A stretch of DNA of 64,000 nt from assembly GCA_944320495.1 (NCBI GenBank), contig CALUHR010000013.1, positions 290,687 to 354,686 of the forward strand, in the 5' to 3' direction. Within the stretch, counting starts at the first letter, position 1. Each line of letters opens with the position of its first letter. The notes beneath the pieces are model-generated. The model searched no databases. It was not told the origin of the DNA and worked only from the letters and a program-made list of their open reading frames with translations. Made by a program: the position numbers and the translations under genes. Positions 1 to 64,000 of the stretch are shown here, one piece after another. The DNA is from Candidatus Methanomethylophilaceae archaeon. Its GTDB lineage: Archaea > Thermoplasmatota > Thermoplasmata > Methanomassiliicoccales > Methanomethylophilaceae.

Positions 1-2
1 TC

Positions 3-2045
3 TCCCGCGACAAGTACCGCATCATGATCTCCTGCATCGCGGACAACTACCCGCAGAAGAAGAGCGTCAGGGTCGATTACGCGGACATCAACGCCGTGAG
101 CGTGGACTTCGCGATGTTCCTGCTCGACGAGCCCGACCGCTGCATCGAGATCGCCCGCAAGACCGTGATGTCCCTGGTCCCGAACATCAACCGCCCGGGC
201 GACATGATCAATGTCAGAATCTACAACCTGCCCAGGGACGCGAAGGTCGACATCCGCAACCTCCGCGCCGACCACCTCCGCAGACTGGTCGCGGTGGAGG
301 GTCTGGCGAGGAAGGTCACCACCGTCAGGCCGAGGATGACACACGCGCTGTTCAGATGCGCCAGGTGCGGCGCCGAGATCTGGGTCGAGCAGCCCGGCAT
401 GATGCTCAGAGAGCCCATGATGTGCACCAACCCGGACGGCGGATGCAACAAGCAGTCCACCCGCTTCATCATCGACGAGAAGGAATCTGTGTACATCGAC
501 ACCCAGAAGATCGAGATACAGGAGAGCCCCGAGGGTCTGCGCGGGGGAGCGCAGCCGGAGAGGATCACCGGGTATGTGGAGGATGACATCGCGGGCGAGG
601 TCACCGCCGGTAACAGGGTCACCCTGAACGGGATCCTGCGCTCCGCGGAGAAGTCCGAGAGGGACAAGTCCACGGTGTTCGACATCTACCTCGACGTGAT
701 CTCGGTGGAGTTCGAGCAGCACGAGTACGACGAGATCGTGATCACCGACGAGGACGAGAAGAAGATCCGGGAGATGTCCAGGGATCCCGACCTCTACGAC
801 AACATCGTCCGCTCCATCTCGCCGTCCATCTACGGTCTGGACTCGGTCAAGAAAGCCATCGCCCTGCAGCTCTTCGGAGGATGCCACAAGGAGATGGACG
901 ACGGGACCGTGATGAGAGGGGACATGCACATCCTGCTCATCGGGGACCCCGGAGTCGCGAAGTCGCAGCTGCTGAGGTACATGAGCTCACTCGCTCCGCG
1001 CGGAATCTACGCGTCGGGAAAGTCCGCGTCCGCGGCCGGTCTGACCGCCGCGGCGGTGAGGGACGACTTCGGCGACGGCAGGTGGACCCTCGAGGCAGGA
1101 GCGCTGGTCCTGGCGGACAAGGGCCTGGCATGCATCGACGAGCTGGACAAGATGACCGATCAGGACCGCTCCTCGCTGCACGAGGCCATGGAGTCCCAGA
1201 GGATCTCCGTGGCGAAGGCGGGGATCACCGCCACGCTGCAGTGCAGGTGCTCCATGCTGGCGGCGGCGAACCCCAAGTACGGGAGGTTCGAGGAGGACAC
1301 GCCCATCGCCGACCAGATCGACCTGCCCCCGGCGCTGATGTCCCGTTTCGATCTGATATTCGTACTCACCGACAAGCCGGACAAGAAGAAGGACACGGCC
1401 ATCACGGAGCACATCCTGAACGCCCACCAGCGCGGGCAGGTCAGGATGATGCACGAGGGGGAGTCCGTCCCCGGCATCAACGCGAAGAAGGTCCTGGAGG
1501 AGACCGACGCCATCCGTCCGGTGTACGAGCAGGAGATGCTCAGGAAGTACGTCGCCTACTCCAAGAGGATCACGCCCATCATGACTGAGGAGGCCAAGAA
1601 CATCATCGAGTCGAGCTTCCTAAGGATAAGGGGCATGGGCAGCGGCGGGAACTCGGTCCCGATCACCGCCAGGCAGCTGGAGGCCTTCGTCCGCCTGTCA
1701 GAGGCGTCGGCCAAGATGAGGCTCAGCCGTGTGGTGTCCGACGTGGACGCCAACCGCGCGGTGGACCTGGTGGAGGAGTACCTCAGGAGGATCGCGGGCA
1801 ACGACGAGGGCGGCTTCGACATCGACAAGATCGCATCCGGTATCAGCTCCAAGGACCGCAGCAAGATCGACGTGGTCCGCTCCATCTTCAGGGAGTTCGG
1901 TGCGGACGGCCTGAACATGGACGAGGCGATCCAGCACGGCCTGTCCAAGGGACTGCAGGAGACCGACGTCTCTAGGGCGGTCAAGCAGCTGCACGACGCG
2001 GGGGAGATTTTCAAGAGCCCGAACGGCACTTACAAGCTGGCGTGA
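3..2045 (+). CDS. mcm: MCM replicative helicase (5' end outside window)
   Basis: Zn finger CARC...CTNPDGGC, Walker A GDPGVAKSQ, CIDELDKM, SRFDLIF arginine finger; frame is open to the window edge. Confidence 0.97.
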   Translation, partial: SRDKYRIMISCIADNYPQKKSVRVDYADINAVSVDFAMFLLDEPDRCIEIARKTVMSLVPNINRPGDMINVRIYNLPRDAKVDIRNLRADHLRRLVAVEGLARKVTTVRPRMTHALFRCARCGAEIWVEQPGMMLREPMMCTNPDGGCNKQSTRFIIDEKESVYIDTQKIEIQESPEGLRGGAQPERITGYVEDDIAGEVTAGNRVTLNGILRSAEKSERDKSTVFDIYLDVISVEFEQHEYDEIVITDEDEKKIREMSRDPDLYDNIVRSISPSIYGLDSVKKAIALQLFGGCHKEMDDGTVMRGDMHILLIGDPGVAKSQLLRYMSSLAPRGIYASGKSASAAGLTAAAVRDDFGDGRWTLEAGALVLADKGLACIDELDKMTDQDRSSLHEAMESQRISVAKAGITATLQCRCSMLAAANPKYGRFEEDTPIADQIDLPPALMSRFDLIFVLTDKPDKKKDTAITEHILNAHQRGQVRMMHEGESVPGINAKKVLEETDAIRPVYEQEMLRKYVAYSKRITPIMTEEAKNIIESSFLRIRGMGSGGNSVPITARQLEAFVRLSEASAKMRLSRVVSDVDANRAVDLVEEYLRRIAGNDEGGFDIDKIASGISSKDRSKIDVVRSIFREFGADGLNMDEAIQHGLSKGLQETDVSRAVKQLHDAGEIFKSPNGTYKLA

Positions 2046-2338
2046 ACATGTTCGTTAGAGTCCACACACACGGAGAGGAGAGGATCGTCGCCGCATGCGA
2101 CGAGGACATCGTCGGCATGACGTTCGCCGGCGGGGGAGCGAAGATCACGGTCCACGAGGACTTCTACGTGGGCGAGTCGCTCCTGGAGGAGGCCTTCGTC
2201 GAGAGGCTCAGGATAGCCACGATCATCAACCTCACCGGCAACGGCGTCGTCGACATCGCCGTCCGCGAGGGGTTCGTCAGCCCCGAGGCGGTCATGGAGA
2301 TCGGCGGGGTCAAGCATGCACAGGCGGTGCTGATGTGA
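2042..2338 (+). CDS. DUF424 family protein
   Basis: IVAACDEDIVG and ATIINLTG motifs; GTGA overlap with the mcm stop. Confidence 0.8.
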   Translation: MNMFVRVHTHGEERIVAACDEDIVGMTFAGGGAKITVHEDFYVGESLLEEAFVERLRIATIINLTGNGVVDIAVREGFVSPEAVMEIGGVKHAQAVLM

Positions 2339-3402: not shown

Positions 3403-4272
3403 ATGATAAAGCTTCCCGAGCCGGTGGACCAGGTCGTAGTCAACCTTCTCCGTCTGGCCAACACCAAGATCCCTGAGGACATCGGCTGGGCGCTGGAGGC
3501 GGCCGGCATGTGGGAGAACAACCCCGTCGCCTACACCCAGATCGGCGCCATCATGGACAACCTGAAGAAGGCCGAGCACATGGGAAGGCCGATGTGCCAG
3601 GACACCGGCATACCCGTCTTCTACGTCTGCGGGAGGTTCGACTCCTCCATCGCGGCCCAGATCGCCAAGGGCGTCGAGCGCGCCACCGCGGAGATCCCGC
3701 TCAGGCCGAACACCGTCGACCCCCTCACGAGGGAGAACCACGGCTCCAACCTGGGTCCAGGCATGCCGATCATCCACTACATCCCCGAGGAGGGGGACTT
3801 CACGGAGATCACCGTCCTGCCCAAGGGCGCCGGCTCCGAGAACATGACCCGCCTGGGCATGCTGAACCCCTCCGACGGCGTTCAGGGCGTGGAGGACTTC
3901 ATAGTCGACGCCGTCCTGGACGCGGGCGGACGCCCCTGCCCCCCGACCGTAATCGGCGTGGGCATCGGCGGCATGTCCGACACCTGCGCCGAGATGGCGA
4001 AGATGGCGCTGGCCTGCCCGCTCGACGTGGAGAACCCCGACAAGACCCTCCGCGAGATGGAGGAGCGCATATTCGTGAGGCTCAACAAGTCCGGCCTCGG
4101 GCCCATGGGGCTCGGGGGCGCGACAACCTGCCTCGGCGTGAGGATCAAGAAGGCGGCCTGCCACACGGCCAGCCTCCCCGTGGCCGTCAGCATCGGATGC
4201 TGGGCCACCAGGCGCGCGTCCGCAAGGATAACGGATCACGGAGTGGAGTATGCCCAGGGGGCGGTCCTGTGA
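3403..4272 (+). CDS. Fe-S hydro-lyase (fumarate hydratase/tartrate dehydratase) alpha subunit
   Basis: PMCQDTG, PKGAGSEN, GGRPCPP and VSIGCWATR motifs. Confidence 0.92.
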   Translation: MIKLPEPVDQVVVNLLRLANTKIPEDIGWALEAAGMWENNPVAYTQIGAIMDNLKKAEHMGRPMCQDTGIPVFYVCGRFDSSIAAQIAKGVERATAEIPLRPNTVDPLTRENHGSNLGPGMPIIHYIPEEGDFTEITVLPKGAGSENMTRLGMLNPSDGVQGVEDFIVDAVLDAGGRPCPPTVIGVGIGGMSDTCAEMAKMALACPLDVENPDKTLREMEERIFVRLNKSGLGPMGLGGATTCLGVRIKKAACHTASLPVAVSIGCWATRRASARITDHGVEYAQGAVL

Positions 4273-4835
4273 CCAACCTCGTCACGCCGCTCACCGAGGA
4301 GACCGTCAGGTCCCTCAGGCTCGGGGACACCGTGTTCGTGAACGGGCCCATCGTCACCGGCAGGGACGAGGCGCACATCAGGGCGCTGGGGCTGAGGGCC
4401 GAGGGGAAGGAGACCCCTCCGCAGCTGGACGGATGCGTCCTCTACCACTGCGGGCCGATCATGAGGCAGACCGAGGACGGATGGCAGGTCGTGGCGGCCG
4501 GGCCCACCACCTCCGCCAGGATGAACCGCCTCGAGCCCGAGATGATCCGCGAGTTCGGCATCAGGGCGATCATCGGGAAGGGCGGCATGTCGGCAGAGGT
4601 CGCGGAGGCCATGCGCGAGTGCGGGTGCGTCTATCTCGCGGCCACCGGCGGTGCCGCGGTGTCCCTCGCCGAGGGTCTGGGCGCCTGCACGGGCGTGGAA
4701 TGGCTGGATCTCGGGATGGCCGAGGCACTCTGGAGCTTCCGCGCGGACCGTCTCGGGCCTCTGATCGTCGCGATGGACGCCGAGGGCAACAGCCTCTACG
4801 AGCAGGTCCGCGGCTCCCTGGTCAGGGACGCTCGA
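4269..4835 (+). CDS. Fe-S hydro-lyase (fumarate hydratase) beta subunit
   Basis: TGRDEAH, YHCGPI, GPTTSARM, IGKGGM motifs; first in-frame CGA at 4833-4835 (standard-code end 4862). Confidence 0.9.
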
Positions 4836-5871: not shown

Positions 5872-8800
5872 ATGATCGAGCGGGTGGACAGGACATACAC
5901 CAAGGAAGAGGTAATGTCGCTCATGGAGCCACTCATCTCCACGTGGTTCGATGAGAGGTTCGGGGATCTCACCATCCCCCAGGCGAAGGCCATCCCCGTC
6001 ATCCACCAGAGGCGCAGCGTGCTCGTATCCTCCCCGACGGGATCGGGCAAGACCCTCACCGCGTTCACCAGCATCATCAATGAGCTCACCCGCTACGCGA
6101 GGGAGGGCACCCTCGAGGAGAGGGTCTACTGCATCTACGTCTCGCCGCTCAAGGCCCTGGCCAACGACGTCAACCGCAACCTGAACGAGCCTCTCGCACA
6201 GATGCGCGAGCTCGCCGCCGAGCGCGGGATGAACGTCCCGGACATACGCGTCGCCGTCCGTTCAGGGGACACGCCCCAGAACGAGAGGCAGAGGATGGTC
6301 CGCCATCCGCCGCACATCCTCATCACCACCCCGGAGAGCCTGGCGCTGATCCTCTCCGCGCCCAAGTTCAGCGAGGCGTTCAAGAGCGTCGAGTGGGTGA
6401 TCCTCGACGAGATCCACGACATCTGCGACTCCAAGAGGGGGGCCTTTCTGTCCCTCACGCTGGAGAGGCTGAGGGAGCACTGCGACAGGGACTTCGTGAG
6501 GATCGGGCTCTCCGCGACCCTGGCCCCCATAGAGTCGATAGCGGCGTACCTGGTCGGGTGCAACCCCGACGGCACGCCCCGCGACGTCGCCCTCATCGAG
6601 TCCGGCTCGAAGAAGCAGCTCGATCTGAAGGTGATCTGCCCCGCGGCAGACATGACCGCGCTGCCCTCGGACATCGTCAACTCGATGATGTACGACATGC
6701 TGAAGGAGCTGATCGACGAGCACGACACGACGCTCGTCTTCACCAACACCCGCTCCGGGGCGGAGAGCGTCGTCTACAAGCTCAAGGAGCGCGGCCTGGA
6801 GAGCGTCGAGGTGCACCACAGCTCCCTCGGCAAGGAGATCAGGCTCGACGTGGAGGAGAGGCTCAAGCACGGTCAGATCAAGTGCGTGGTGTCCTCCACG
6901 TCGCTGGAGCTGGGCATAGACATCGGGTCCGTGGACCTGGTGTGCCAGATCGGCTCCCCGAAGTCGGTCGCCAAAGGGCTCCAGAGGATAGGCAGGAGCG
7001 GGCACAGCTTCGGCAAGGTGGCCAAGGGCCGCCTGCTGGTGTTCGACCCGGACGACCTCGTGGAGTGCGCGGTCATGTGCCGCGCCGCCCACCGCGGGGA
7101 CATAGACCGCGTGGGGATCCCGGAGAACTGCCTGGACGTCCTCTCCCAGACGCTGGTGGGCATGAGCCTGGACCGCAAGTGGGACGTCCGCGAGGCGTAC
7201 GACCTCGTGAGGGGGTCCTACTGCTACCGCACGCTCACCGAGCAGAGCTTCACCGAGGTGCTCCGCTACCTGGGCAGCAAGGACGACTTCGAGGGCGTCT
7301 ACTCCAAGATATGGTACGACCCGGAGGACGGCCAGTTCGGCAAGAAGAAGGGCTCCAGGATGATCTACTTCATGAACCTGGGCACGATCCCCGAGGAGGC
7401 CAACTACCGGGTGGTGACCAACCACGGCTCCACCGTCGGCGAGCTCTCCGAGAAGTTCGTGGAGAGGCTCTCGCCGAGGGACGTATTCGTCCTCGGGGGG
7501 CGCTCGTTCGAGTTCGTCCGCTCCAAGGGCATGACCGCCTACGTCAAGGAGGCCAGCGGGAGGAAGCCCACCGTGCCCTCCTGGGCCGGCGAGATGCTTC
7601 CCCGCAGCTTCGACCTGTCCATGGACATAGCCAGGTTCCGCGGGGAGATGGAGTCCGTCATCGGCATGGACGACCGCGAGGCGGTCGCCGGCATCTCCAG
7701 GGACTTCGACGTGGACGAGGGCTCCGCCAGGAGCATCCTCTCGTACTTCAGGGAGCAGCAGGCCGTCGCGGGCTTCATCCCGGACGCATCCAGGCTCGCC
7801 GTGGAGGAGTACATCGACCCGTCCGGCAACCAGAAGCTGGTGTTCCACTTCCCGTTCGGGCGCAGGGTCAACGATGCCCTGTCCCGCGCCTACGCCTACA
7901 GGCTGACCACGGCCATCGGGGCGAACGTCTCCGTGACGATCTCGGACGACAGCTTCATGCTGGGTCTCCCGAGGAAGGTGGACCCGGCCACCGTCCCCGG
8001 CATGATACGCTCCGCGGAGCTGGAGCCCGTGCTGAGGAAGGCCATCCGCGACTCCGAGCTCTTCAAGCTCAGGTTCAGGCACACCGCCTCCCGGAGCTTC
8101 ATGGTCCTGCGGAACTACATGGGCCGCCCGATATCGGTCAACAGGCAGCAGGTCCGCTCTTCCTATCTGCTGGAGGCGATGGGCGACATGGAGAACGTGC
8201 CCGTTATCGAGGAGACCTACCGCGAGGTACTGGAGGACGACATGGACATCAAGAGCGCCCGCCAGGTGCTGGAGATGATCGAGTCCGGGGAGATGTCCGT
8301 GTCCACGATCAGATACACAGGCACCCCGTCCCCGTTCGCCCACTCCGCGATCCTGTCCGGGTTCTCGGACATCGTCCTCATGGAGGACCGCTCCGCACTG
8401 CTCAGGGAGCTCCACCGGAAGGTCCTGTACCGTGCGCTGGGCGACACCGTGGGCGAGTTCGAGTTCACAGAGGACCAGATAGTCCCGTATTTCGCGCAGA
8501 AGCCCCCGAGGGCCGCGTGCAGGGAGGACATCCCGAAGCTGCTGGCCGTCACCGGTCCGCTGCAGGCCCTGAGGCAGAGGGGCAGGAACGTGTACGCATA
8601 CACGGACGCCGACAAGGCGACGGTGGACGGCTGGATACGCGACCTCATCAACGACGGCACCCTCGGGACCGTGTACCTCGACGAGACCCACGTCATGCTG
8701 GCGTCGGAGATCCCGTACTACGCGGCGGCCACGAGGAAGGACAGGACCCTGAACGAGACGGACAGGGACGTGCTGTCCCGCATCGGGGACCGCACCCCGC

Positions 8801-11250
8801 TCTCCGAGGTCGCGTCCGAGCTGGAGATCAGCGATGACAAGGCCTACCGCTCGTCCAGGAAGCTCGAGTCCATGTACCTGGTCGCCAGGACCGAGATAAC
8901 CGGGAACAACCGCTGGCTCTACTCCCGTGCCGAGTATCCGGAGACGGACCGCTCCGCGGCGATAGACCGCATAGTGCTCCGCTACCTGGAGTGCTTCGCC
9001 CCCGCCACCGTGCAGGAGGTCGCCTACGCGCTCTCGCTGGAGGATTCGGAGGCGAGGAGCTCCCTCGAGTCGCTGTGCGCCGAGGAGGAGGTCGTCAAGG
9101 GACGCTTCCTGATCTCCGAGAGCGACCAGTACATGCTGAAGATAGACCACATGCGCCTGAGGGCCGGCAAGGACAACGTGTTCGACTACGAGTCCGTGGA
9201 GCGCCACCGCCTGACCAAGGGCGAGAGGTTCGGGTCCATCCGCGAGTACTTCGAGTTCTACGGCTCCGCCGGCAGCGAGCTGGACGTGTACCAGAGGGTG
9301 GACGGATTCAGCCTCGCAGAGTGGCAGGGCATGCGCAGGTCCGGGGAGATCCTCCTCGGCAGGTTCGTCAGGGGCAGGGTCAGATTCGTCCTCCGCGAGG
9401 ACGCGGACAGGTTCGCGGCGTTCCGCCACGACGAGACCCAGCCCGGGGACGAGAGGGTGACCGAGGCGATAGGGAGGCTCGGACGTGCGACGTTCAGACA
9501 GCTCATCGCGGCCACCGGCATGGAGAAGGACGCCCTCAAGGAGGCGGTGCTCAGGGTGGACCGCTCGCTCAAGGTCATCCGCGACTTCGACGACAGGGAG
9601 GACTGGGGTACCGAGAACACCTACGCCCTGTACGAGCCCGGGGTTCCGGAGGGGGACCCGGCGCTGGACCTGACCGAGAGGGCGATACGCGCCTACGGCC
9701 CGGTGCCGTCCGGGTCCATGAGGTTCATAACGGGGCTGTCCGCGGAGGAGACCGAGGCGGCCGCCGCCAGGATAGGCGCGGAGACCATCCTGGTGGGCGA
9801 GGGCCAGAGTCCGATGCTCGTGATGCATGACGAGGTCCAGCTCCTGGAGCGCGTGCCCGAGCAGGAGTTCCCGGTCAGGGTGCTGTCGCTCTCCGATCCC
9901 GACATCGGGTCCAAATGGGCCGAGATAACGTCCCGCTACGGGGACAGGCTGGTCTACCCTCTGGCCAGGGGCGACACCGTCGTCGGCGCCCTGGAGATGT
10001 GGGAGATGGCGGGGGTCATAGACATCCGCGGCATGGACATGGACTCGCCGGGGATGCTCCCGGAGGTCCTCGAGGCGGTGGACGTCATCATGGGGTTCTA
10101 CAGGCAGAAGGGCATGGAGATCGTGCGCATCCGCGAGGTCCTCGGCAAGGACGCCGCCGATCTCGACGAGGGGACGGTCGCCGTCCTCGTCTCCCACGGA
10201 TACCACGAGGTCAACGGATTCTACGCCAAGGGAAGGTTCTCCCCGTGGACCGTGCCCGGGGAGCTCCTCACGGCCCTGGCCATCAGGAGGCAGGGCGTCC
10301 CGCGCATGGACCGCCTTCCCGATGCGGCCGCGCTCCTCGAGGCTCGCGGGTACATCCGCGGGGACCAGGAGCTGCCGATCCGCGTGAGGGACCAGTCCAG
10401 CCTGAAGAAGCAGCTAGAGGGCACGGGGGCGGTGAAGACCGCGCTCCTCCCGTCGTACATGGGCTACGCCAGCCCCGCGGAGGCGTCGCTCTACCGCGCG
10501 GCCAAGTCGATCAAGCTCAGCGAGCCGGCGAAGACCGTGCTCGGCATCATACGCAAGTCCGGGGCGGCGTCGAAGAAGAGGCTTGTCATGGACTCCCCCT
10601 ACTCGGACGACCTGACCTCCGACGCCATATCGGAGCTGGTCCGCGGGACCGTCATCGGCCAGGGCGCCGATTCAATGTACGTCGAGATACCGGATTCCGG
10701 CATGGGCCGCCACGAGGCCCTCATGGAAGTAGCCCGCAGGCACTTCGCCGGTTTCGGTTCGTTCTCCGCGGACATCATTTCCGGGTTCCTCGAGTGCAGG
10801 ATGCCCGAGACGCGCGCGGTGCTCGCAGACCTCGAGGACGAGGGGTTCCTCCAGAAGGGGTTCTTCGCCGAGGGCGACCCGACCCTCAGGTGGATGAGGT
10901 CCGAGGACGTCGGCAGGGAGCCCCGCGGGTTCGCCGAGGCTTTTGTCCTTAACACCCAGGACAACCTGAGCCTTTACCTCCGCGAGATGATCAAGGGCCA
11001 CTGCGAGTCGGCCAGGTCCGTGGTGATGCAGGGTCCGGCCATCATCGGCTCGTTCAAGGGCAAGATTTGCCCCTCCGGCGCGAAGGTGGAGGAGTTCGAG
11101 GGCAACGACCGCGCATCCAGGGTGATCAAGGAGACAGCCCAGGCCTGCGGCGTCAGGCTGGAGACCCAGAGGCAGCGCGAGGACGACGACTGGGACGTGT
11201 CGGAGTTCTACACGAAGCTGAACCTGGGGTCGAGGCTGGACCGCCACCGA
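5872..11250 (+). CDS. lhr: Long-form Lhr-family SF2 helicase (about 1790 aa)
   Basis: SSPTGSGKT, DEIH, GLSAT, HHSSL, QRIGRSGH motifs plus a long C-terminal extension; the only CGA is at 11248-11250 (standard-code end 11262). Confidence 0.9.
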
Positions 11251-11302: not shown

Positions 11303-11686
11303 ATGAAGATACCGTGCGAGATCGTCGTCTGGCAGGTCCTGCCGCTCATCCGCAGGGAGCTCGCCAAGGAGCTGGTCCAGGTCCACAGGCTCTCCCAGGC
11401 CGAGGTCGCCAGGAGGTTCGGCGTGACCGATGCGGCCGTCTCGCAGTATCTGACCAAGAAGCGCGGCGGCGAGTACTCGGACAGTCCCAGCTATCCCGAC
11501 TTCATCAAGGCGGTCTCCGATTCCGCGGCCGCGATCGCCAACGGCGCCGAGGTCTCCGAGGAGGTCTGCAGACTGTGCATCGTCGTCAAGCGCTGCGGCC
11601 TGCTGTCGGAGATCTACCACGAGCAGACCGGCGCGTATCCCCCGAAGTGCGCGGGCGCGTACGTCAGGGAGTCCGTCGACTCGCGA
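11303..11686 (+). CDS. HTH transcriptional regulator with Cys-containing C-terminus
   Basis: PCE..V..VLPLIRRELA, SQAEVARRFGVTDAAVSQY HTH; ends CGA-TGA (standard-code end 11689). Confidence 0.8.
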
Positions 11687-12476
11687 TGAACTTGCTGTGA
11701 TAGAGGAACTCCTGAGCGTATCCAGCATAGCGTCCGAACCTCTCGCGTCCGAAGGCGGACACCTTCGCATAGGAGCCGGACACGCCGTACATCTCCTCCA
11801 CAACCTTCTGGATCCTCACGTCGACGGGGAACGCCTCCAGATGCCCGTACCCGAATATGGCTACACAGTCCGCCACCTTGGGGCCCACGCCCTTAATCCC
11901 GATGAGCTCGCGGACGCATCCCTCGTAGTCCAGTTCCGAGATGGCCACGGGGTCGATCTCGCCGTCCTCGACGCGCCGTGCCAGCTCTATGAACCTGCCC
12001 TCCCTGAACCCGAGCCTGCAGGACGGTATCCGCTCCGCGTTGTCCAGGATGTCCTTCGGCGAGGGGAAGGCGTGCCTTCCGCCGAGGTCCCTGCCGCATG
12101 CGTCACAGACCGATTCCACCATCTTGCCGATCCTCGCGACGTTGGCGTTCGTCGCCAGCAGGTACGTGGCGAGACACTCCCACTCGTCCTGCTTCAGGAT
12201 GCGGAGCCCAGGGCAGTGCTCCGACAGGGATGCCACGTATGGGTCCCTCTCGGAGATCTCGCGGACGATGGCGTCTAGGTCGTCCTCGGAGCGGAAGTAG
12301 CGCATCAGGCGCCCCATGTCGGAGCATCCCTCGACCTCCGCTCCGTAGTCGGTCTGCCTCATGCGGACGATGTCGTTGTCGATCACACCCTCCCACCATT
12401 CGCCGGTCCTCCTCCAGCGGTGGGCCTGACCGCATCCGAGGGTCGGGTCCAGCGAGACGTCCATCTCCATCCTCAT
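11676..12476 (-). CDS. ogg: 8-oxoguanine DNA glycosylase (Ogg1/AlkA HhH-GPD family)
   Basis: TLGCGQAHRW, IKGVGPKVADC, FPVDV, YAGYAQEFLY; CGA at 11676-11678 (standard-code end 11664). Confidence 0.9.
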
Positions 12477-21689: not shown

Positions 21690-21848
21690 ATGGAGCCAGA
21701 CAGGATCTTCATCGACATCAAGACGTGCGACATGACCCTCTCGCAGGTCATGCTCGAGATCGCGCGCCTTCAGTCGGAGAATCCGGAGTACGAGATCTTC
21801 ATGGACGGGGACCGCTACGCCATCGTGGGGCGCAGGAGGATCGGACGA
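21690..21848 (+). CDS. Small hypothetical protein (52 aa)
   Basis: GGAGG upstream; ends in CGA overlapping the next ATG (CGATG); standard-code end is TAG at 21872. Confidence 0.6.
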
Positions 21849-22390
21849 TGGGACGCGGAAGGATCACGATAGGACTCTACAACTCGTACGACCAGAACTT
21901 CAGGGAGCCCCACAGGCGCGTCATAGCCCGCGCGGGGGACCTCGCGAGGGCGTATGACATGGGCCTCGCACTCTTCGGCTTCCCGATCCCGGAGGATGCC
22001 CGCACGCCCATGCAGATCGCGGAATGGGTGGCAGGGACCACCAGCATCGGCGGCCACGGGAAGAACTTCCTGGAGATGGCGGAGTCCGGCAGGTTCAACT
22101 GCTTCCCATATCCAGGGAAGGGCTTCCCTCCCCAGCTGGGGGAGGTGGTCCTCACCACCTGCAGACCGGACCCGAAGAGGCAACTCTCGCTCGGGCAGGT
22201 GGCCGAGATGGTCGAGGGCGGCCAGAGCATCACGCTCCTGTTCGGCATAGGCCCTCACGGCGTCCCCAAGGACGTCATGAGGATCCCCCGCTACAACCTC
22301 GACATCACCCCCGGGGGCTTCTCGCTGGAGACCGCCACCGCGCTGGGGGCGGTCACCGGAGCGCTGGCATCGAGGCTCGGGATGATCTGA
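21848..22390 (+). CDS. DUF531-family (SPOUT-like) protein
   Basis: TIGLYNSYD..F.EPHRRVIARA, FGIGPHG, SLETATALG. Confidence 0.8.
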   Translation: MGRGRITIGLYNSYDQNFREPHRRVIARAGDLARAYDMGLALFGFPIPEDARTPMQIAEWVAGTTSIGGHGKNFLEMAESGRFNCFPYPGKGFPPQLGEVVLTTCRPDPKRQLSLGQVAEMVEGGQSITLLFGIGPHGVPKDVMRIPRYNLDITPGGFSLETATALGAVTGALASRLGMI

Positions 22391-23272
22391 GGACTCGAGT
22401 CTTTCCAACGAGTAGTCCAGGATCTTCTCCTTGCGGGCTGAGAGGATGGTCATGTAGAACTCCTTCTGGAGGTCCCCTATCTCCTCGCAGCTGTCAATTG
22501 TCCCATAGATGACATCCATGTCGATTCTGGGCAGGATGCGGATCAACGCTTCGTTGCATTCGGGATTCGACAGCGATGAGATGTATTCGAAGTAATTGAT
22601 CTTCTTATTGCCCATCTGGATTGCGGAATTGGGCCAAACGAACACTCTGTTGTCGATTTCACGCGGATCGTCGAGGACCTTCCTGTAGTCCGAGACTCTC
22701 AGCTGCGGGAACAGGCACGATCCGCAGTCGAATATCGGAGCAATCGTCGCAGTCTGTCTGTCATCATCGATGAGGAATCCCCAGTTTCCGTTGTGCCTGT
22801 CGAAGTTGCCGAGGAACGCATCGCAGATGAACATGTCCCAGAAGAACGATTTCAGCACGCTGTGGTCTATCCAATGCTGTTCCATGATGGCCGCATCGAT
22901 ATCATCGAGCTCGGTCCCGTATCCGCTCTCGCTCGTCTGGATGCATGTGTTCTTCAGCGAACCGAAATCCGCGAATCTCAATCCGCCCTCGGTGAAATCC
23001 CTGCAGGCGACGACAGTCTTCGACACCCCGCGATCATCGACGAATCTGCCTAGCAGGGTCTCCTGGGCGTTCACGCCCATCCCGCGAAGGACCTGGCAGC
23101 AGATATGCTCGGATATGCAGCTGTTGGCGTACTCTCCCTCGCCCCTCGATTTGGCCCTGGGAGGGAATTTCAGCATGTACTGGTGACCATCGTATCTGAC
23201 CGAGATCTTTTGGCCGTTCGCGCCGTTGAACGTCTTGAACGGATTGCGCGGGCAATCGGTGAAATCAATCAT
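22370..23272 (-). CDS. HipA-like/CtkA-family Ser/Thr kinase, copy 1 (300 aa)
   Basis: GANGQK, YMLKFPP, NFDRHNGNWG, FDCGSCLFPQ; CGA at 22370-22372 (standard code runs on to 21815). Confidence 0.85.
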
Positions 23273-23714
23273 CTCCGTCACCGATCCCGAGATACTTGGC
23301 ACGCAGGTATGCGGCCTGTCCTTCGCTGATTCTCCCGCAGTGGAGGTTCCAGTTGATGGATCCGTACAGTTCATCGAGGAAGCAATCCAGGTGCAGGCAG
23401 CCGTCTTCACATTCCACCAGGTCTCTGATGGCGGTCTCCAGGTCGGGAGGGAGGTTGACCTCCAGATATGATTGGTCCCTCGGAGTTCCGTTGTTGCGGG
23501 TGATGACGCCGGTCTCCAGGTCCATCACCTCCTCTACGGGCATGTCCAACGCATCGGCCAGGCGACTGACCGTCCTGGCGGAGCAGTTCTGCAGAGATGT
23601 CTTCCCCGTGCATATGTTGGAAAGCGTGGACCACGGTATCCCACTCGTCTTGGCCAACCTGTATCTCGTCAGGCCCTTCTCGGCCATGACGTCCGACAGC
23701 GTCCTCCCGCTCAT
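23265..23714 (-). CDS. XRE-HTH protein with a conserved helical C-domain; putative antitoxin
   Basis: GLTRYRLAKTSGIPWSTLSNI HTH; LPPD..ELYG.IN..LR.KYL domain; ATGATTGA overlap with kinase 1. Confidence 0.8.
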   Translation of the reverse strand: MSGRTLSDVMAEKGLTRYRLAKTSGIPWSTLSNICTGKTSLQNCSARTVSRLADALDMPVEEVMDLETGVITRNNGTPRDQSYLEVNLPPDLETAIRDLVECEDGCLHLDCFLDELYGSINWNLHCGRISEGQAAYLRAKYLGIGDGDD

Positions 23715-23755
23715 GGTGATGTATCATATCACCGATATATCAGTGTGCCGACACA

Positions 23756-24664
23756 TCGTCCCTTGTGCTCGAGCAGGTCCATGGCCCTGTCGATGATGCC
23801 GGTCTTGCGGGCGTAGATCATCGTGTAGTAGAACTGGCGCTGGACCTCGGACAGGCCCGGAGTCTCCGCGATGATCCTGCCAATCTTATCCATGTTGATG
23901 CGGCCACTCATGTAGGCGAGGGCGGCGTCGCACTCCGCATTGTCGATGGAGGTGATGTAATCGTAGTAGTTGATCCTGGCGCGGTTGATCATGAGGGTGG
24001 ACTTGGGGAACAGGCGTACCCTGTCGTCGATCTCGTAGGGTCTGTTCAGCACCTTCTCCATCCTGTCCTCCGTGACCTGCGGGAACAGGCACGAGCCGCA
24101 GTCGTAGACCGGGGCGATGTCCGCGTGCTTGTTGACCTCGTCCACCAGGATCCCCCAGTTGCCGTTGTGGCGGTCGAAGTTGGCCAGGAGGGCGTCCCCG
24201 ATGAACTGCCTCCAGAAGAAGGACCTCAATCTGTCCGGGACGATCAGGCGCTGCTCGTCGATGGCGTTCATGATCGAGTTCAGGTCGGTGTTGTAGCCGT
24301 TGAGGTCGTCGTCGAGGCAGGTGTTCTTCAGATGCGCGAACTCGATGAGGGTCTTCCCGATATCGGCGGCGAAGTCCCTGCAGGCGACCACGTTGCTGGT
24401 GTTTCCGCTCTGGTCGGTGTAGGTGCCCAGCAGGGTCTCCTGGGCGTCCATGCCCATGGACTGGAAGACGTGGCACGCCAGGTACTCGGTGATGTGCGAG
24501 TTGACGTAGCTCAGGTCGGCAATCTTCCCGGGCTTCGGGGGGAACTTGAGCATGTAGCCGTGTCCCTGGTAGAATATGCTAATCTTGTTCCCGTTGGCTC
24601 CGCCGTATGCGCGGTAGTCGTTCCTCTCGCAGTCGCTGAAATCGATCAGGTCCATAGTCGTCAT
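23756..24664 (-). CDS. HipA-like/CtkA-family kinase, copy 2 (302 aa)
   Basis: GANGNK, YMLKFPP, NFDRHNGNWG, YDCGSCLFPQ; CGA at 23756-23758 (standard-code end 23729). Confidence 0.85.
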
Positions 24665-24890
24665 CTTCGTTGAAGAGATACTTCCGCCGGAGTCTGGCCG
24701 CGGCCTCGGGGGACAGGGCTCCGCCCCATTGGTTGGCGTTTATCGCGCCGTACAGCTCCCCCCAGAGGCAGTCCAGGAGGGGCGATCCGCTCTTCAGGCC
24801 CTCGACGTACTCCTTGATGGCGAGGGCCACATCCGGGGGCAGGTCCCGTTCGGGACCCGGGGGCTCATCCCCGCGCTCAGTAGTGGTCAT
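24642..24890 (-). CDS. HTH-less homolog of the putative antitoxin C-domain (82 aa)
   Basis: LPPDVALAI..LLDCLWGELYGAIN..LRRKYL aligns with 23265-23714; CGA at 24642-24644 (standard-code end 24579). Confidence 0.7.
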
Positions 24891-25944: not shown

Positions 25945-27333
25945 TCGGAGGGCCTCGCCGCCGTGCCTCATGAGCTCGAACATGCCGATCCCCGTGACCT
26001 TCCTGAACTCCCTGGTGGCGAGCCACATCATTAGGCCCCCTCCGAAGACCTCCGCCACGAGCAGGCTGTAGAATATTGCGTCCATGGACACGGTGCACGA
26101 GACCATCAGGAACGCCACGATGACCAGATTCCTGATGAGCGACGACACCATGGAGAGCTGGGCGAGGCGCAGCGACTCCAGGATAGACGATCCGATGTCG
26201 ATGAGGCCCATGAACGGTATGAGCACGGCGTATATCCTCAGGACATGGGCGAACTGGGGGCGGAGCTCCGCCATGGACTCGGACTGCGTGAGCGGCACCA
26301 TGGCCCAGTCGGCGAACACGAACAGGACCGCCGCGATGCCCACCATGGCGACCATCGTTATCCTCAGAGAGTAGGCGCAGGCGTCGGCCGCCCTCCTGTG
26401 GTCGTCCTGACCCATCGCGGCCGAGACTATGGGGATGATCGACGACCCGGTGGCCTGGGAGACCACCTCGGCCAGGGACACGAACCTCCAGGGGATGTTG
26501 TAGAGGGCGGCCCCCACGGAACCTCCGCAGATGATGACGAAGATTCTCTGGACCATGGACATGAAGCTTATGAGAGTGGTCTCGACGGTCTTGGGCACCC
26601 CCACGAACATCACGTCCCTGATCATGGCGAGGTCGAACCTGAACCCCCTGAACGACATCCTCAGGTACACCGATCCGCGGGCGAACCACCACAGTCCCAC
26701 GAGCATCGACGCGACGGTGGATATCGAAGTGGCCCAGCCGGCCCCCGCGATGCCCATGTCCAGGACGAACATGAACAGCGGGTCCAGGACGACGTTCATC
26801 ACAGCGGCGACCAGGAGCATGACCGTGCTGCGCCTGGCCGCGCCCTCGGCCCTGAGTATGCCCGCTATCACGCCGTCCAGCACCAGGGGCAGGGTGCAGA
26901 CCACGATGGGCACGATGTAGTCGAGGCACAGGTCCCGGATGTCATCCGCCCCCATCATCGAGATGGACGGGCCCAGCAGGAGGTACATGACCGGCGTGAG
27001 CGCGACCGCCACGACCGCGCTGACGGCCATGGTCTGCGACACGAGGGCGTCGGCCCTCGCCTTGTCGCCCCTGCCGAGGCATCTGGCAATCGACGTCGAC
27101 GCCCCCACGCCTATGCCGGTCCCGATGCCAGACACTATCCAGTACACCGGGGATATGGTGGAGGCCGCGGAGCTCGGGTCCACCCCGAGGAGGGAGCACC
27201 ACGCGGTGTCCGCGAAGCTGTTGATCTGCACCACGAGGAACGACACTATGAGCGGACCGGACATGGCGAGGACGGCCCTCCGGGGGTCGCCGAGCATGAC
27301 CTTCAGGTCCCTCGTGACCTCTGCCTCGCTCAT
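25945..27333 (-). CDS. MATE-family efflux transporter
   Basis: About 12 TM segments, MNVVLDPLFM..MGIAGAGWAT; CGA at 25945-25947 (standard-code end 25933). Confidence 0.9.
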
Positions 27334-34436: not shown

Positions 34437-35066
34437 ATGTCCCCTTCGAAGATCGTCTGCATAGGCTGGAACTACCGCTCCCATGTGAGGGAGCTGGAAT
34501 CGGAGCTTCCGAAGGAACCGACCGTGTTCCTGAAGCCGCCCAGCTGTCTCATAGGAGATGGGGAGGGGATCGTCATACCCGCGGGCGTCACGAACGTGCA
34601 GCACGAGGTGGAGCTGGCCCTGATCTTCGGGAGGAGATGCAAGAACGTCTCCGAAGAGGATGCACTCCTGTGCATCTCCGAGGTGGCGGTGTTCAACGAT
34701 GTGTCGGCTAGGGACATGCAGACCGCCGCCCGGAAGGCGGGTAACACATGGGACCTGAGCAAGGGCATGGACACCTTCGGCCCCATGTCGGACCCAGTGC
34801 CCGTGGGGTCCGTCGGTGACCTGCAGGACCTGGAACTGACCCTAACCGTCAACGGGGAGGTCAGGCAGCGCGGGAACACCTGCGACATGATATTCACGGT
34901 CCCGGAGCTCATCTCATACGTGACAAGTTTCATGACGATGGAGCCCGGCGATATCCTCATCACCGGGACCCCGGAGGGGGTGTCGGAGATCAGGCCCGGC
35001 GACGTCGTGCGCGCCGAGATCGAGGGTGTGGGCGTCGTCACCAACCCCGTGGTTTCGGGCGCCCGA
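34437..35066 (+). CDS. Fumarylacetoacetate hydrolase family protein (209 aa)
   Basis: KIVCIGWNY, HEVELA, NDVSARD, GDILITGTP; CGA at 35064-35066 (standard code fuses it to purS). Confidence 0.9.
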
Positions 35067-38615: not shown

Positions 38616-39272
38616 TCGGACGTTGACCTTCACGTCCACCCTGTCGCCGTCCTCGAGGCTGAGGGTCCTGCGGAGGTGGTACTGGCAGATGATCTCGATG
38701 ATGTCCGCGTAGTGGGACCTCTCGGGGACCACGATGGCGCAGTCGATGTTGCGTATCCTCGCCTTGTAGGCGACGACGTTGCCGAAGCTGCGGCCGTTGT
38801 CCGTGAATCCGTTAATCGGCACCCCGGCCACGCTCTTGATGACGTCGAGCTTCCCGACGTCGTCCGGGTCCACATGGATGTTCAGGGTGCCCTCGAAGGG
38901 CTCGAACCCGAGTTTGGACTTGAACTGATCCAGATAGCCGGGCTGGCAGATGTAGTAGCCGCCCTCGCCCATCCCCGACTGCACCGCGCCGTGGATGGTG
39001 ATGTGGTCCGTGAGCTCGAAGATCCTGCGGTACTCGTTGTACTCCTTGCGCAGGTCGTCTATCCCCTTCTGGGTCAGCTTGATGCGCTGCCTGCGGGCGC
39101 CCAGGTCCCTGACGATGTACTTCTCCTCCAGGAGCTCCAGAATCCTCTTGGAGGCAGATTGCTGGCTCATCTCGAGCGCTTCGCCGAGCTCCCTCGAGGA
39201 GATGGCGATGTAATCGTCCATGGCTCCAAGCAGGGCGAGCTTCCTGAGTGCGAAGGAGTACTTCTCGTCCAT
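38616..39272 (-). CDS. ribK: CTP-dependent riboflavin kinase with N-terminal wHTH (218 aa)
   Basis: SQQSASKR HTH, SGMGEGGYY, PFEGTLN, PERSHY, LEDGDRV; CGA at 38616-38618 (standard code runs to 37488). Confidence 0.92.
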
Positions 39273-50290: not shown

Positions 50291-50764
50291 TCGGTCCGTT
50301 ATTGGTGTTGAGCACTCTGTCGTGACGTTCAGGTCGAACACGATGCGCGGATCCAGGCGATTCTGGATGATGTCATCTATGAGATCGAACATGCCGTTGT
50401 AATCGTCCGCCGACTCGTCGGTGACGCCCCAGTCGCACTTCTCCATGCAGAACATCAGGAAATCCAGGAAGTCATAGGCCGCCTCGTCTCCGCCCAGTTT
50501 GATGAAGCTCTCCAGATCCCGGCAGAACTTCTCGGCCATGCGTTTGCGGAACATATCTCTCTCGCATCCGCAAAGGCACTGGTTGATGCGGATGCGGGTC
50601 TCCTCCCTGTCCAGCAGGGACCCCTCCTTCGCGAGCTTCTCCAGTGTCTCCATCACGGTGTCGTAGCCCAGCTTCTCGGCGAGGCAGATTACGATCCTCT
50701 TGAACATGCAGTGGTTCATTGTGTTCGTGATATCCTCAATAACAAGTGCATCACAGTAATCCAT
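50291..50764 (-). CDS. Hypothetical Cys-rich protein (157 aa)
   Basis: Clean ORF with an AT-rich upstream region; CGA at 50291-50293 (standard-code TAG at 50282). Confidence 0.55.
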
Positions 50765-55576: not shown

Positions 55577-56773
55577 ATGGATTCCCCCGGGCTGTACGAC
55601 GACTGGACCGGCAACATCGTGAAGGACGCCGACGTGAGGTCCCTGGACCCAGGTGCCGTGCGCGCCGCCAGGGCGTCCTACCGCGAGAGGTTCCCCGACC
55701 GCGCCGAGGAGAGCGACGGCTGGGACGACGAGACCTTCCTCGCCCGCGCAGGGGTGTTCAAGAGAGGGAGGCCCACGGTCGCGTCGCTGATCCTCCTGGG
55801 GAAGCAGGACGCCGGGATACTCCCGTCCACAGTCTGCATACGCTGGAGGCTCCTGGACCCGGACGGGACCGTCGTCGACTCCAGGACCTTCCAGGGTCCG
55901 ATGCTGCTCGCATCGTCCCAGGCGGTGTCGATGGTCCGCAACTGGACCTGCACGATCGGGCCGGCGGACGCTGCAAGGAAGGTCAGCGCGTACCGCAACT
56001 CCACGCTGCTCGAGGCGGTCCGCAACGCGCTGGCACATCAGGATTTCTCGTACGGCGGGACGGTGGACGTCGTGGAGCGCGAGTCGGAGTCCGTGACGAT
56101 CGTGAGCAGGGGGTCGTTCCCGCAGAGGTCCCCCGAGTCGTTCATCGCCGGGCCGCCCGTGCAGTCCCCTCCGCGCAACAGGTTCCTGATCTCGGCCATG
56201 GCGGGCATAGGGGCCGTGCCCGCATCGGGGACCGGGATCCGCTCCATGTACCTGGGTCAGGCCTCCCGCAGGTTCCCGATGCCCGACTTCGACATCCAGG
56301 ACGACCGCGTCTCCGTGCGCTTCTCCGGCATCAGGGCCGGTGCGTACGCCAGGGTCCTGGACCTCCGCGAGGACCTAGATTTGAGGACGATGATGGACCT
56401 GGACCGTCTCGCCAAGCTCCGCTATCTCCCGGATCGCAGGGTTAAGGCGCTGGCGAGGAGGGGTCTCGTCGAGGTGCTAGACGGCGTCCCGTGCATCGCG
56501 TCGGGCGCCGGACAGGACATGCTGTCCGCGTTCGTCATCGGCACGGAGGAGGAGGCCGTGCTGGCGCTCATCGACAGGAACGGCTCGGTCACCAGGTCCG
56601 ACGTCTCGGACATCCTCGCGGCCCGCGACAGGAAGGAGCTGACGCCCGACCAGGTCCGTGTGAAGGCCACGAACCTCCTGCAGTCCATGAGGCGCAGGGG
56701 TCTGGTCGAGAAGGCGGACGGCAGCACCCGGTCGGCCAGGTACGTCCGCTCGTCCGGGCCCGCGCAAGAATAA
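55577..56773 (+). CDS. RecG-C/HATPase_c_4-like ATP-binding protein with wHTH, lacking an N-terminal AlbA/Schlafen domain
   Basis: EAVRNALAHQD, RNRFL..AMAGIG...GTGI pattern; an in-frame CGA upstream supports the ATG at 55577. Confidence 0.65.
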   Translation: MDSPGLYDDWTGNIVKDADVRSLDPGAVRAARASYRERFPDRAEESDGWDDETFLARAGVFKRGRPTVASLILLGKQDAGILPSTVCIRWRLLDPDGTVVDSRTFQGPMLLASSQAVSMVRNWTCTIGPADAARKVSAYRNSTLLEAVRNALAHQDFSYGGTVDVVERESESVTIVSRGSFPQRSPESFIAGPPVQSPPRNRFLISAMAGIGAVPASGTGIRSMYLGQASRRFPMPDFDIQDDRVSVRFSGIRAGAYARVLDLREDLDLRTMMDLDRLAKLRYLPDRRVKALARRGLVEVLDGVPCIASGAGQDMLSAFVIGTEEEAVLALIDRNGSVTRSDVSDILAARDRKELTPDQVRVKATNLLQSMRRRGLVEKADGSTRSARYVRSSGPAQE

Positions 56774-58031: not shown

Positions 58032-58107
58032 TGGCGCCGCCACACGGATTTGAACCGAGGACCTTGTGATTAACAGTCACACGCTCTACCTGCTGAGCTA
58101 CGGCGGC
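58032..58107 (-). tRNA. tRNA-Asn(GTT), CCA encoded
   Basis: GCCGCCG acceptor strand, anticodon arm TGTGA-CTGTTAA-TCACA. Confidence 0.95.
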
Positions 58108-62404: not shown

Positions 62405-62432
62405 AATAGGGGGTGGCTCTGGCCGGCGTCGG

Positions 62433-62786: not shown

Positions 62787-62788
62787 GA

Positions 62789-63334
62789 TCGGACCCAGAT
62801 CGCGTGGCGGCGGCGCATGTCGTCCTCGGAGATCTCCTCGCGGGACATTATCTCGCTGACGATGCCGTCGAACAGCAGCAGCGCGGAGTCCTCGAAGACG
62901 GTCCCCAGGGGGGCCACCCTGTGCAGTCCCTCGCCCTCGGGAACGCTCATGACCAGGGACACGTCGGAGACGCGGGTCAGCGGGCTTCCGCTGGTGCCCG
63001 TTATGCAGAATATCTCGGACCCTATGCGACGGGCGATTTCCGCTGTCTGCACAACCGACGACGTCCTGCCGGTGTAGGATATGAGGAGGGTGAGGTCCTC
63101 CTTCCCGATTATGGGGGTGGTCATCTCGCCCACGAAATGCACGTCGAGCCCGAGCTGGACGAGACGCACCGCGAACATCTGGCCCACCAGCCCGGAGCGG
63201 CCGGACCCGTAGACGAAGACCTTGCGATGGCTCAGGATCCCGGAGACTAGCTCCTCCCTGGCGTCGGCGTCGACCGAGCGGACTGCGGTCCTGCAGGTGT
63301 CCAGCAGGGTGTCCAGGTCGTCCAACTCACTCAC
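62789..63334 (-). CDS. hxlB: 6-phospho-3-hexuloisomerase-like SIS protein (181 aa)
   Basis: VYGSGRSGLV, VGEMTTP, PLGTVFE, MRRRHAIWV then CGA at 62789-62791 (standard code runs to 62084). Confidence 0.88.
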
Positions 63335-64000
63335 CGGCGGCAGCGGCCGCCGCTTCTGACTTGCGACGCTCCTTGAGCTCCTTCGCGGCCCTCTTGGTGA
63401 GGATCCTCTCCTGGATGATCCTCATGTACATCGCGTCGTGCTCCAGCAGCGGGGACATCGAGATGACGGTGCAGTCCGGCCTCATCTCGGCCATGGCCTC
63501 GGCGAGGGGCTCGAACTTCAGGTCGCCCTTCTTGATGGGCGTGAGCCTCTTCTCTCCCGCGTCGCCGTACTCCACGCCGGAGAACTCGGTGTGGAGGCCT
63601 CCCTTGGCATAGGGCTCGACGGTCTCGATGAGGTTGATGAAGTCGTCGGGCTCGATGAGCGTCCCGCCCGTGCGGGAGTGGTAGTGGGCGAAGTTGATGA
63701 CCGGCACCGGTCCGCCGACGGCCTCGCAGATGTCGAGGACCTGCTCGAGGGAGCCGAAGACGTCCTGCTGACCGGTGATCTCGATGCCGAGCCTGCACTT
63801 AAGGCCGACGCCGTTCCACCAGTCCATGAGGGCCCCGAGGTTCTCGTAGATGTGTTCGTCCACGTAGTCCTCGGTGCGCTTGCCGTCGTAGATGCCCAGG
63901 TTCGTGACCACGATGTCCCCGTCCAGGGCGTCCAGGATGATGCCGGCGTGCCTTATGCTGTCGATGCAGCTGAAGGCGAGCTCGTTCTCGTCGCCCAGGT
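63327..64000 (-). CDS. Endonuclease IV-like TIM-barrel protein (5' end outside window)
   Basis: EITGQQDVFGS, NFAHYHSR, GEKRLTP, SPLLEHDA. Confidence 0.8.
   Translation of the reverse strand, partial: LGDENELAFSCIDSIRHAGIILDALDGDIVVTNLGIYDGKRTEDYVDEHIYENLGALMDWWNGVGLKCRLGIEITGQQDVFGSLEQVLDICEAVGGPVPVINFAHYHSRTGGTLIEPDDFINLIETVEPYAKGGLHTEFSGVEYGDAGEKRLTPIKKGDLKFEPLAEAMAEMRPDCTVISMSPLLEHDAMYMRIIQERILTKRAAKELKERRKSEAAAAAAGE

Follow-up and report, generated by a model that had tools for sequence, protein, structure and literature searches.

The 64,000-nucleotide stretch of DNA analysed here (the window) comprises positions 290687-354686 of contig CALUHR010000013.1 (C13) of a Candidatus Methanomethylophilaceae archaeon. 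Together with the rest of the genome it very probably follows a doubly altered genetic code, in which UAG is a sense codon for pyrrolysine and is hardly used as a stop, and CGA, nominally an arginine codon, is purged from the interior of genes and used as a terminator. A doubly altered code had been proposed in the original prediction, made from the window alone, and at the level of the sequence both of its halves hold, with qualifications regarding the gene pylB, four TAG codons and the retention of a tRNA-Arg(UCG). The positions of the CGA and TAG codons, the end of the coding signal, the equivalence of CGA to the stops of orthologues and the phylogenetic spread of the trait are established by analysis of the sequence.

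Stop codons of the window and the genome

The assembly has a size of 1.77 Mb in 14 contigs, a GC content of 62% and a completeness of 90.6%. Positions with the prefix C2, C8, C9 or C13 are contig positions; window positions count from 1. Genes were called with a codon log-odds caller of our own, trained on 378 long open reading frames (ORFs) with a high GC content at third codon positions (GC3). With CGA allowed as a stop, 65 genes touch the window, of which 49 end in TGA, 15 in CGA, one in TAA and none in TAG, the same figures as in the hand count of the original prediction. For genes wholly inside the window the figures are 47, 15, one and none in the same order, and two more genes cross the window ends. 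Each of the 15 terminal CGAs was confirmed by inspection of the sequence. They belong to the following genes (window coordinates, strand, product, length in amino acids (aa), stop).

4269..4835, + strand: fumarate hydratase beta subunit (Fumerase_C), 188 aa; CGA at 4833-4835, next standard stop 8 codons on
5872..11250, + strand: Lhr-type helicase, 1792 aa; CGA at 11248-11250, TAA 3 codons on
11303..11686, + strand: helix-turn-helix (HTH) protein, 127 aa; CGA at 11684-11686, TGA directly next
11676..12476, - strand: OGG-like DNA glycosylase, 266 aa; CGA at 11676-11678, TGA at this position in one orthologue from the genus
21690..21848, + strand: ORF of 52 aa; CGA at 21846-21848, standard code runs to TAG at 21872
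22370..23281, - strand: HipA-like kinase, 303 aa; CGA at 22370-22372, standard code adds 184 codons up to TAG
23756..24655, - strand: paralogue of the HipA-like kinase, 299 aa; CGA at 23756-23758, TGA at this position in an orthologue
24642..24830, - strand: partner ORF, 62 aa; CGA at 24642-24644
25945..27333, - strand: MATE efflux protein, 462 aa; CGA at 25945-25947, TAA 3 codons on
27326..28663, - strand: RarA/MgsA AAA+ ATPase, 445 aa; CGA at 27326-27328, standard code adds 127 junk codons
28706..29659, - strand: dihydrouridine synthase, 317 aa; CGA at 28706-28708
34437..35066, + strand: FAA-hydrolase family protein, 209 aa; CGA at 35064-35066
38616..39272, - strand: CTP-dependent riboflavin kinase with winged HTH, 218 aa; CGA at 38616-38618
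50291..50719, - strand: ORF of 142 aa; CGA at 50291-50293, standard code runs to TAG 2 codons on
62789..63325, - strand: SIS-domain (HxlB-like) protein, 178 aa; CGA at 62789-62791, TGA at this position in orthologues

Pfam models were run on ORFs read through the terminal CGA; the models ended 3-10 residues before the CGA, and the tails beyond it were devoid of Pfam domains. Regarding the riboflavin kinase, the RFKase model was matched over its full length (1-121 of 121) and ended at residue 216, with the CGA at 219; the standard code would add 375 codons that run antisense through purQ and purL, and the position of the CGA is occupied by TGA in 23 orthologues from the genus and by TAA in one. 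The FAA_hydrolase model (1-214 of 214) ended at residue 206, with the CGA at 210. The gene purS (35130-35369) lies in the same frame as this FAA-hydrolase gene, without a standard stop between them and separated by the CGA and 21 codons, and the PurS model was matched (2-76 of 77) at residues 235-308 of the read-through ORF. Translation table 11 would annotate the two genes as a fusion protein. The MgsA_C model (1-166 of 167) ended at residue 436 of the RarA/MgsA ATPase, with the CGA at 446 and no domain in the extension. In the fumarate hydratase subunit the Fumerase_C model was matched up to position 204 of 205 and ended at residue 179, and orthologues from the genus carry TGA at the position of the CGA. 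Under the standard code the SIS-domain gene would gain 234 codons running antisense across two genes.

The region 22370-24830 (- strand) holds two HipA-like kinase genes in tandem, each with a small partner ORF upstream; CGA terminates both kinases and one partner.

The original prediction had named 21690-21872 and 50282-50764 as the only two genes ending in TAG under the standard code, each with a CGA shortly upstream. The upstream CGA was found in both, at codons 52 and 59 of 60 in 21690-21872 (+) and at codon 142 of 145 in 50282-50719/50764 (-). They are not the only such genes, however: three further ORFs, 22370-23281 (-), 24642-24830 (-) and 38616-39272 (-), also run to TAG under the standard code, and each meets a CGA first.

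For the whole genome, calling with the standard code yielded 1528 genes (TGA 1343, TAA 116, TAG 69), and calling with CGA as a stop yielded 1679 genes (TGA 1196, CGA 410, TAA 54, TAG 19). CGA thus ends about 24% of all genes (410/1679), and TAG is the terminal codon called in 19 of 1679. Relative to the standard code, the coding fraction was 0.867 vs 0.825 and the total score 279.9k vs 259.9k.

Coding signal around CGA codons

Within the last 15 codons of standard-code ORFs, in-frame CGA was enriched 17-fold over gene bodies across the genome; the next most tail-enriched codon was TTA (6.8-fold, with small counts). Past the first in-frame CGA the mean codon log-odds dropped from +0.44 to -0.56 and GC3 from 0.87 to 0.57, and the density of CGA climbed to the non-coding level of about 40 per 1000 codons. 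In CGA-free genes the coding signal remained intact through the last 10 codons. Only 8 of 483 in-frame CGA codons were flanked by coding signal on both sides, and several of these eight were junctions between genes in the same frame or lay upstream of the true start. Out of frame, CGA is common (about 35 per 1000 off-frame triplets).

When each of the 61 sense codons was tried as an additional stop on 865 kb of sequence, CGA raised the score by 10,052 and the next best codon by 2,181. CGA as an additional stop yielded 76 more genes and 35 kb more coding sequence, whereas other rare codons only fragmented genes. The next in-frame standard stop followed at a median distance of 24.5 codons after CGA stops vs 29 after TGA stops, and immediate tandem stops occurred after 6.3% of CGA vs 3.2% of TGA stops, a mild excess. 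At 50 of 404 CGA stops the codon overlaps the ATG of the next gene as CGATG. The CGA of the 52-aa ORF of the window is part of such a CGATG, the following gene starting at 21848. To judge from the sequence, this geometry of stop-start coupling looks like that of ordinary termination-reinitiation. CGA ends 37% of the genes in the quartile with the lowest codon bias and only 7% of those in the quartile with the highest.

A flavodoxin-like gene at C8:55331-55840 (+) has a CGA at codon 118, inside a conserved GKTI-x-PFCT region; in relatives this site is occupied by L, H or V. Either the gene may be a pseudogene, or its CGA may be read through.

Orthologues and phylogenetic spread

Comparison with the aRF1 neighbourhoods of named genomes assigns the organism to the order Methanomassiliicoccales and the family Methanomethylophilaceae. 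Its genus comprises more than 60 species-level genomes, including Candidatus Methanoprimaticola sp. MG2, whose release factor aRF1 is 91% identical; an aRF1 identical to the one studied here occurs in the metagenome-assembled genome (MAG) SI.A92.metabat-bins.58. From each relative 80-100 kb was sampled, and the caller was retrained genome by genome (labels of relatives: G, genome; L, sampled locus). Training on loci pooled by GC bin was dropped because the 0.64 bin had learned wrong frames (CGA 12.5 per 1000), and the results obtained in this way for L035, L045, L080, L089 and L105 were set aside.

In the orthologue test, the last 60 residues of the proteins were aligned to the DNA of relatives and the codon at the stop position was read, with aRF1 excluded. 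Regarding relatives from the genus (203 pairs from 65 genes), the position of the terminal CGA was occupied by TGA in 47%, TAA in 2%, CGA in 8% and an Arg codon in 3% of the pairs. In TGA-ended genes, which served as control, the stop position showed TGA in 68% and Arg in 2%. In other genera and families the position of the terminal CGA showed TGA in 38% and Arg in 2%, the out-of-genus database consisting mostly of aRF1 neighbourhoods. An Arg share of 37% opposite CGA in out-of-genus pairs was due wholly to codon 78 of aRF1 and was 2% without that gene. A Codetta-like check against other families provided 4 aligned CGA sites vs 1171 for AGG. CGG had 26 aligned sites, with R at 11, K at 5 and W at none, and a tRNA(CCG) is present, which rules out a reassignment of CGG to Trp of the kind described in vent archaea.

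Nine genomes from the genus had 0-15 in-frame CGA codons per about 29,000 codons, mainly in the tails of ORFs, and CGA ended 1-10% of their genes; the present genome, with about 26%, is the extreme of the genus. The other families of the order were represented by five genomes, which had 32-118 in-frame CGA codons, mostly with coding signal on both sides, and lost score with CGA as a stop. These families thus read CGA as an ordinary sense codon and provide a negative control for the method. Regarding the other genera of the family, a CGA-stop signal was not seen in OY781044 (42% GC) but is present in Methanomassiliicoccaceae archaeon COG_1 (G140), a member of a second genus (aRF1 71% identical), in which 28 of 108 genes end in CGA and the score rises by 902. 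As COG_1 combines CGA stops in about 26% of its genes with a normal tRNA(UCG) stem and with CGC at codon 78 of aRF1, the trait either predates the genus or has two origins. All over the Methanomethylophilaceae CGA is a rare codon, which fits a capture of the codon followed by its use as a stop.

tRNA-Arg(UCG), aRF1 and conserved in-frame CGA codons

ARAGORN detected all five Arg tRNAs, including tRNA-Arg(UCG) at C13:413317-413390 (+). This tRNA has an A31.A39 mismatch, which leaves an anticodon stem of 4 bp, and U32 in the loop. It was present in all closely examined genomes of the genus and keeps the anticodon UCG (C35, G36) and A20 across the genus. Its anticodon arm is always abnormal there, with a 31-39 mismatch (A.A, C.A or U.C; over 24 distinct sequences) and otherwise C33, which replaces the near-universal U33 in the group of G007, G008 and G015. 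The stem pairs 27-30 with 40-43 show compensatory changes across the genus, which indicates that the tRNA, chargeable to judge by its sequence, is under purifying selection. Regarding three other genera of the family, the 31-39 pair and U33 are kept in all of them; two (L209-L211) have a fully paired stem of 5 bp and the third (L206-L208) has a 27-43 mismatch. A loss of tRNA(UCG) from several complete genomes of the genus, suggested by a plain DNA search, was rejected after a covariance model had found a diverged C33 copy in each of them.

A single aRF1 gene and one Pelota-like gene were found in the genome. In the aRF1 gene (C2:85933-87165, -) codon 78 is an in-frame CGA; it corresponds to the Arg of ..DSIAA-R-LKTYK after the NIKS motif, which aligns with an Arg in the aRF1 of Halobacterium and in human eRF1. 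Within the genus, 44 of 46 distinct aRF1 genes have CGA here; flanking synonymous sites vary and the other Arg codons of aRF1 are CGA in only 2 of 987 cases; outside the genus codon 78 varies freely. On sequence grounds, CGA-78 could be an autoregulatory site like that of prfB. Codon 186, for the Arg of ..SSV-R-FERL a little past the GGQ motif, is CGT in all 46 aRF1 genes from the genus though CGT is a minor codon. A substitution G28S is private to this genome and G018 (GRSTE here vs GRGTE in the other 90 aRF1 sequences). It sits in the loop that matches the eukaryotic GTS loop, and the lineage is the one with the highest usage of CGA stops.

The genes gmhA and gmhB at C13:193618-194700 (-) form one frame with a single junction codon and without a start codon after the junction. 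Across 30 genomes from the genus the junction codon is CGA in 24, TAG in 3, AGA in 2 and AAG in 1, so that CGA is interchangeable here with TAG, likewise an ambiguous stop, and with codons for basic residues. The junction looks like a programmed read-through site that would give two products. The DRDD motif of GmhB has a conserved Arg, for which two relatives (L297, L302) use CGA.

TAG as pyrrolysine codon

Methanomassiliicoccales decode UAG as pyrrolysine. The pyrrolysine (Pyl) cluster of the present genome lies at C9:65898-68755 (-) in the order pylT-pylS-pylC-pylD, without pylB between pylS and pylC. Scored against the NCBIfam cut-offs, pylS (260.8 bits), pylC (302 bits) and pylD (181.7 bits) all exceeded them (C9:65898-68522); pylT, with the anticodon CUA, lies upstream at about C9:68684-68755. 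The machinery implied by the original prediction was thus found as regards pylT, pylS, pylC and pylD, and not as regards pylB.

In total, 37 in-frame TAG codons occur in 28 genes. In 19 of 1679 genes, none of them in the window, the first stop would be TAG. About 14-15 of the 19 keep their coding signal past the TAG, over stretches that range from tens of codons to more than 1000; mtmB-like and mtbB-like genes are among them, as are unrelated genes. The four TAG codons that lie 0-20 codons before a CGA or TGA are ambiguous and could be terminators. Conserved domains continue across TAG in two cases, a TatD_DNase domain (aa 9-276) with TAG at residue 148 and an AAA_11 domain (aa 145-446) of a superfamily 1 helicase with TAG at residue 326. 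The idea that UAG is used only as a sense codon, also part of the original prediction, agrees with about 15 of the 19 genes, the other four being ambiguous.

Assessment and alternative explanations

Several observations weigh against the doubly altered code. The gene calls rest on a home-made caller, for which outgroup genomes and the scan of all sense codons served as controls. Among the CGA-ended genes, 23 of 65 were without any stop at the position in orthologues from the genus. A pylB above the cut-off was not found anywhere in the 90.6%-complete assembly, the best match reaching 66 bits vs a cut-off of 348. The cognate tRNA(UCG) is retained, whereas its loss would be expected if CGA had been turned into a stop completely, and COG_1, with its CGA stops and its normal-looking 5-bp stem, shows that an aberrant tRNA arm is not required. 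Changes of aRF1 were sought in the NIKS and YxCxxxF motifs and in the GTS-type loop, and none was common to the genus. NIKS and YxCxxxF, being unchanged, and G28S, not being genus-wide, do not account for a recognition of C at the first codon position.

These unchanged recognition motifs would suit a different account, in which CGA is an unassigned codon that stalls the ribosome, its tRNA being weak or scarce, and the peptide is freed by rescue (Pelota/ABCE1 plus peptidyl-tRNA hydrolase, or unspecific action of aRF1). The abnormal anticodon arm within the genus, the shunning of CGA stops by genes of high codon bias and the finding of only one aRF1 and one Pelota-like gene point the same way. 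Such stalling is nevertheless unlikely, as rescue is costly and a quarter of the genes rely on CGA, including rarA, dus, ribK and the gene of the Lhr helicase. The 50 CGATG overlaps resemble normal coupling of termination and reinitiation, back-up stops after CGA show almost no surplus, and COG_1 ends 26% of its genes with CGA in spite of its normal tRNA stem. That CGA is still plain Arg, as a very rare and slow codon in tolerated, unconstrained C-terminal tails, is highly improbable. The presence and conservation of tRNA(UCG) and the alignment of CGA with Arg at codon 78 of aRF1 and in the DRDD motif of GmhB in two relatives are in line with it, but rarity alone fails to explain the 17-fold enrichment in tails, and the coding signal reaches the non-coding level right after CGA. 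The tails read through would comprise 100-375 codons that run antisense through neighbours and hold no domain. At the exact position of CGA, orthologues carry TGA or TAA in about half of the pairs (49%) and an Arg codon in 3%, and two full Pfam models, those of FAA hydrolase and PurS, share one frame with only a CGA between them. Since CGA and TGA are one transition apart and occupy the same positions in orthologues, C-to-U editing of mRNA (CGA to UGA) was also considered, as was a systematic error at TGA from sequencing or assembly. We regard either as scarcely credible: with about 35 CGA per 1000 off-frame triplets, editing would need to be specific for the frame, in-frame CGA is nearly absent within genes already at the level of the DNA, the pattern recurs across unrelated studies in dozens of MAGs and isolate assemblies, and aRF1 has a conserved CGA at an Arg position.

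Proposed mechanism

Under the doubly altered code, the retained and weakened tRNA, the conserved in-frame CGA codons and the skew toward genes of low codon bias together suggest that CGA is not a pure stop but a leaky one that may be used for regulation. The change probably started as a codon capture, CGA being very rare in the Methanomethylophilaceae and nearly absent in the genus. CGA would then have spread as a stop via TGA-to-CGA transitions and via new CGA codons in C-terminal tails, most of all in genomes with a high GC content and in genes with weak expression. The single aRF1 probably releases the peptide at CGA in competition with the weakened tRNA-Arg(UCG); ordinary genes would terminate, and a few sites would allow a low level of read-through of CGA as Arg. 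At CGA-78 this competition would let aRF1 limit its own synthesis, in the manner of the in-frame UGA of bacterial prfB, and it would also yield two products from gmhA-gmhB.

A more specific version of this mechanism is put forward tentatively, at somewhat below even chances. CGA would be a regulated dual-meaning codon, by default a stop for aRF1 and otherwise Arg via the weakened tRNA-Arg(UCG), with self-limitation of aRF1 and with a short and a fused product of gmhA-gmhB; CGA and TAG would act as interchangeable leaky stops, UGA and UAA would be the only unambiguous stops next to these two context-dependent ones, and the family would have gained the CGA stop more than once.

Comparison with known systems

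The reassignment of a sense codon to a stop has, to our knowledge, been accepted so far only in organelles and is not established in any cellular genome. Vertebrate mitochondria use AGA and AGG as stops, and sense-to-stop reassignments reportedly also occur in organelles of pedinophytes. As there, an Arg codon ends genes here and is purged from their interiors; unlike these tiny genomes, which have lost the cognate tRNA, the present one is the 1.8 Mb cellular genome of a free-living organism that keeps the tRNA and a few conserved in-frame uses of the codon. CGG in Mycoplasma capricolum is an unassigned codon; in contrast to such a codon, which is unused, has no tRNA and ends no genes, CGA ends 410 genes here and has its tRNA. 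Bacterial prfB, the gene of release factor RF2, has an in-frame UGA that is bypassed by a +1 frameshift and serves autoregulation. The aRF1 gene likewise holds, early in the gene, an in-frame copy of its presumed own target codon (CGA-78, 44 of 46), the difference being that its bypass would be an in-frame read-through as Arg by tRNA(UCG).

Genetic Code 34, in which all TAG codons encode pyrrolysine, was described for Methanomethylophilus, Methanogranum and Methanoplasma (Kivenson et al., bioRxiv 10.1101/2024.09.30.615893; Science 2025). The present genome, from the same family, resembles this code in having TAG in ordinary genes unrelated to methylamines, next to no TAG terminators, and pylT, pylS, pylC and pylD. 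It differs from the code as published in the additional CGA terminator, CGA not being mentioned in the preprint, and the present genus (including Candidatus Methanoprimaticola) is not among the genera named for Code 34. Codetta reported changes of Arg codons in bacteria only. A CGA stop was raised as a possibility, untested, in two hydrothermal-vent archaea with CGG as Trp and no tRNA(UCG) (Melnykov, bioRxiv 10.64898/2026.04.02.715157). These share with the present case that they are archaea, that CGA is missing from conserved domains and that it is proposed as a stop; they belong to an unrelated lineage with about 50% GC, whereas here CGG is Arg, tRNA(UCG) is present and TAG is recoded. A tRNA-Trp(CCA) with a 4-bp anticodon stem is reported to read UGA in Blastocrithidia and Condylostoma (PMC13092985). 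A shortened anticodon stem accompanies a change of codon meaning in both situations; in Blastocrithidia and Condylostoma it strengthens the reading of a stop codon, whereas the 31-39 mismatch or C33 of the present genus would be expected to weaken the reading of a sense codon and is absent in COG_1. The literature on CGA in Methanomassiliicoccales, on sense-to-stop reassignment and on Methanoprimaticola was searched, and no report of the present CGA stop was found.

If confirmed, this would be the first sense-to-stop reassignment in a cellular genome. The hosts are common gut methanogens of humans, other primates and ruminants, some of them in culture or enrichment. Translation table 11 misannotates about a quarter of the genes as over-extended, fused or missed, and the CGA stop adds 151 genes and 4% coding sequence; the same misannotation would reach every public genome of the genus, the protein databases and metabolic reconstructions. 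With CGA ending from 1% to 26% of genes and with tRNA variants that differ by lineage, the genus provides a natural series for codon-capture theory. It may also offer an archaeal counterpart of release-factor autoregulation, and the result bears on genetic-code engineering with PylRS/tRNA-Pyl pairs from the family.

Other features of the window

The sole TAA-ended gene of the window and its four tRNA genes, the latter detected with Rfam and ARAGORN, are as follows.

55577..56773, + strand: gene call ending in TAA, 398 aa
14380-14451, + strand: tRNA Thr-CGU
21578-21650, + strand: tRNA Phe-GAA
57872-57945, - strand: tRNA Met-CAU
58035-58107, - strand: tRNA Asn-GUU

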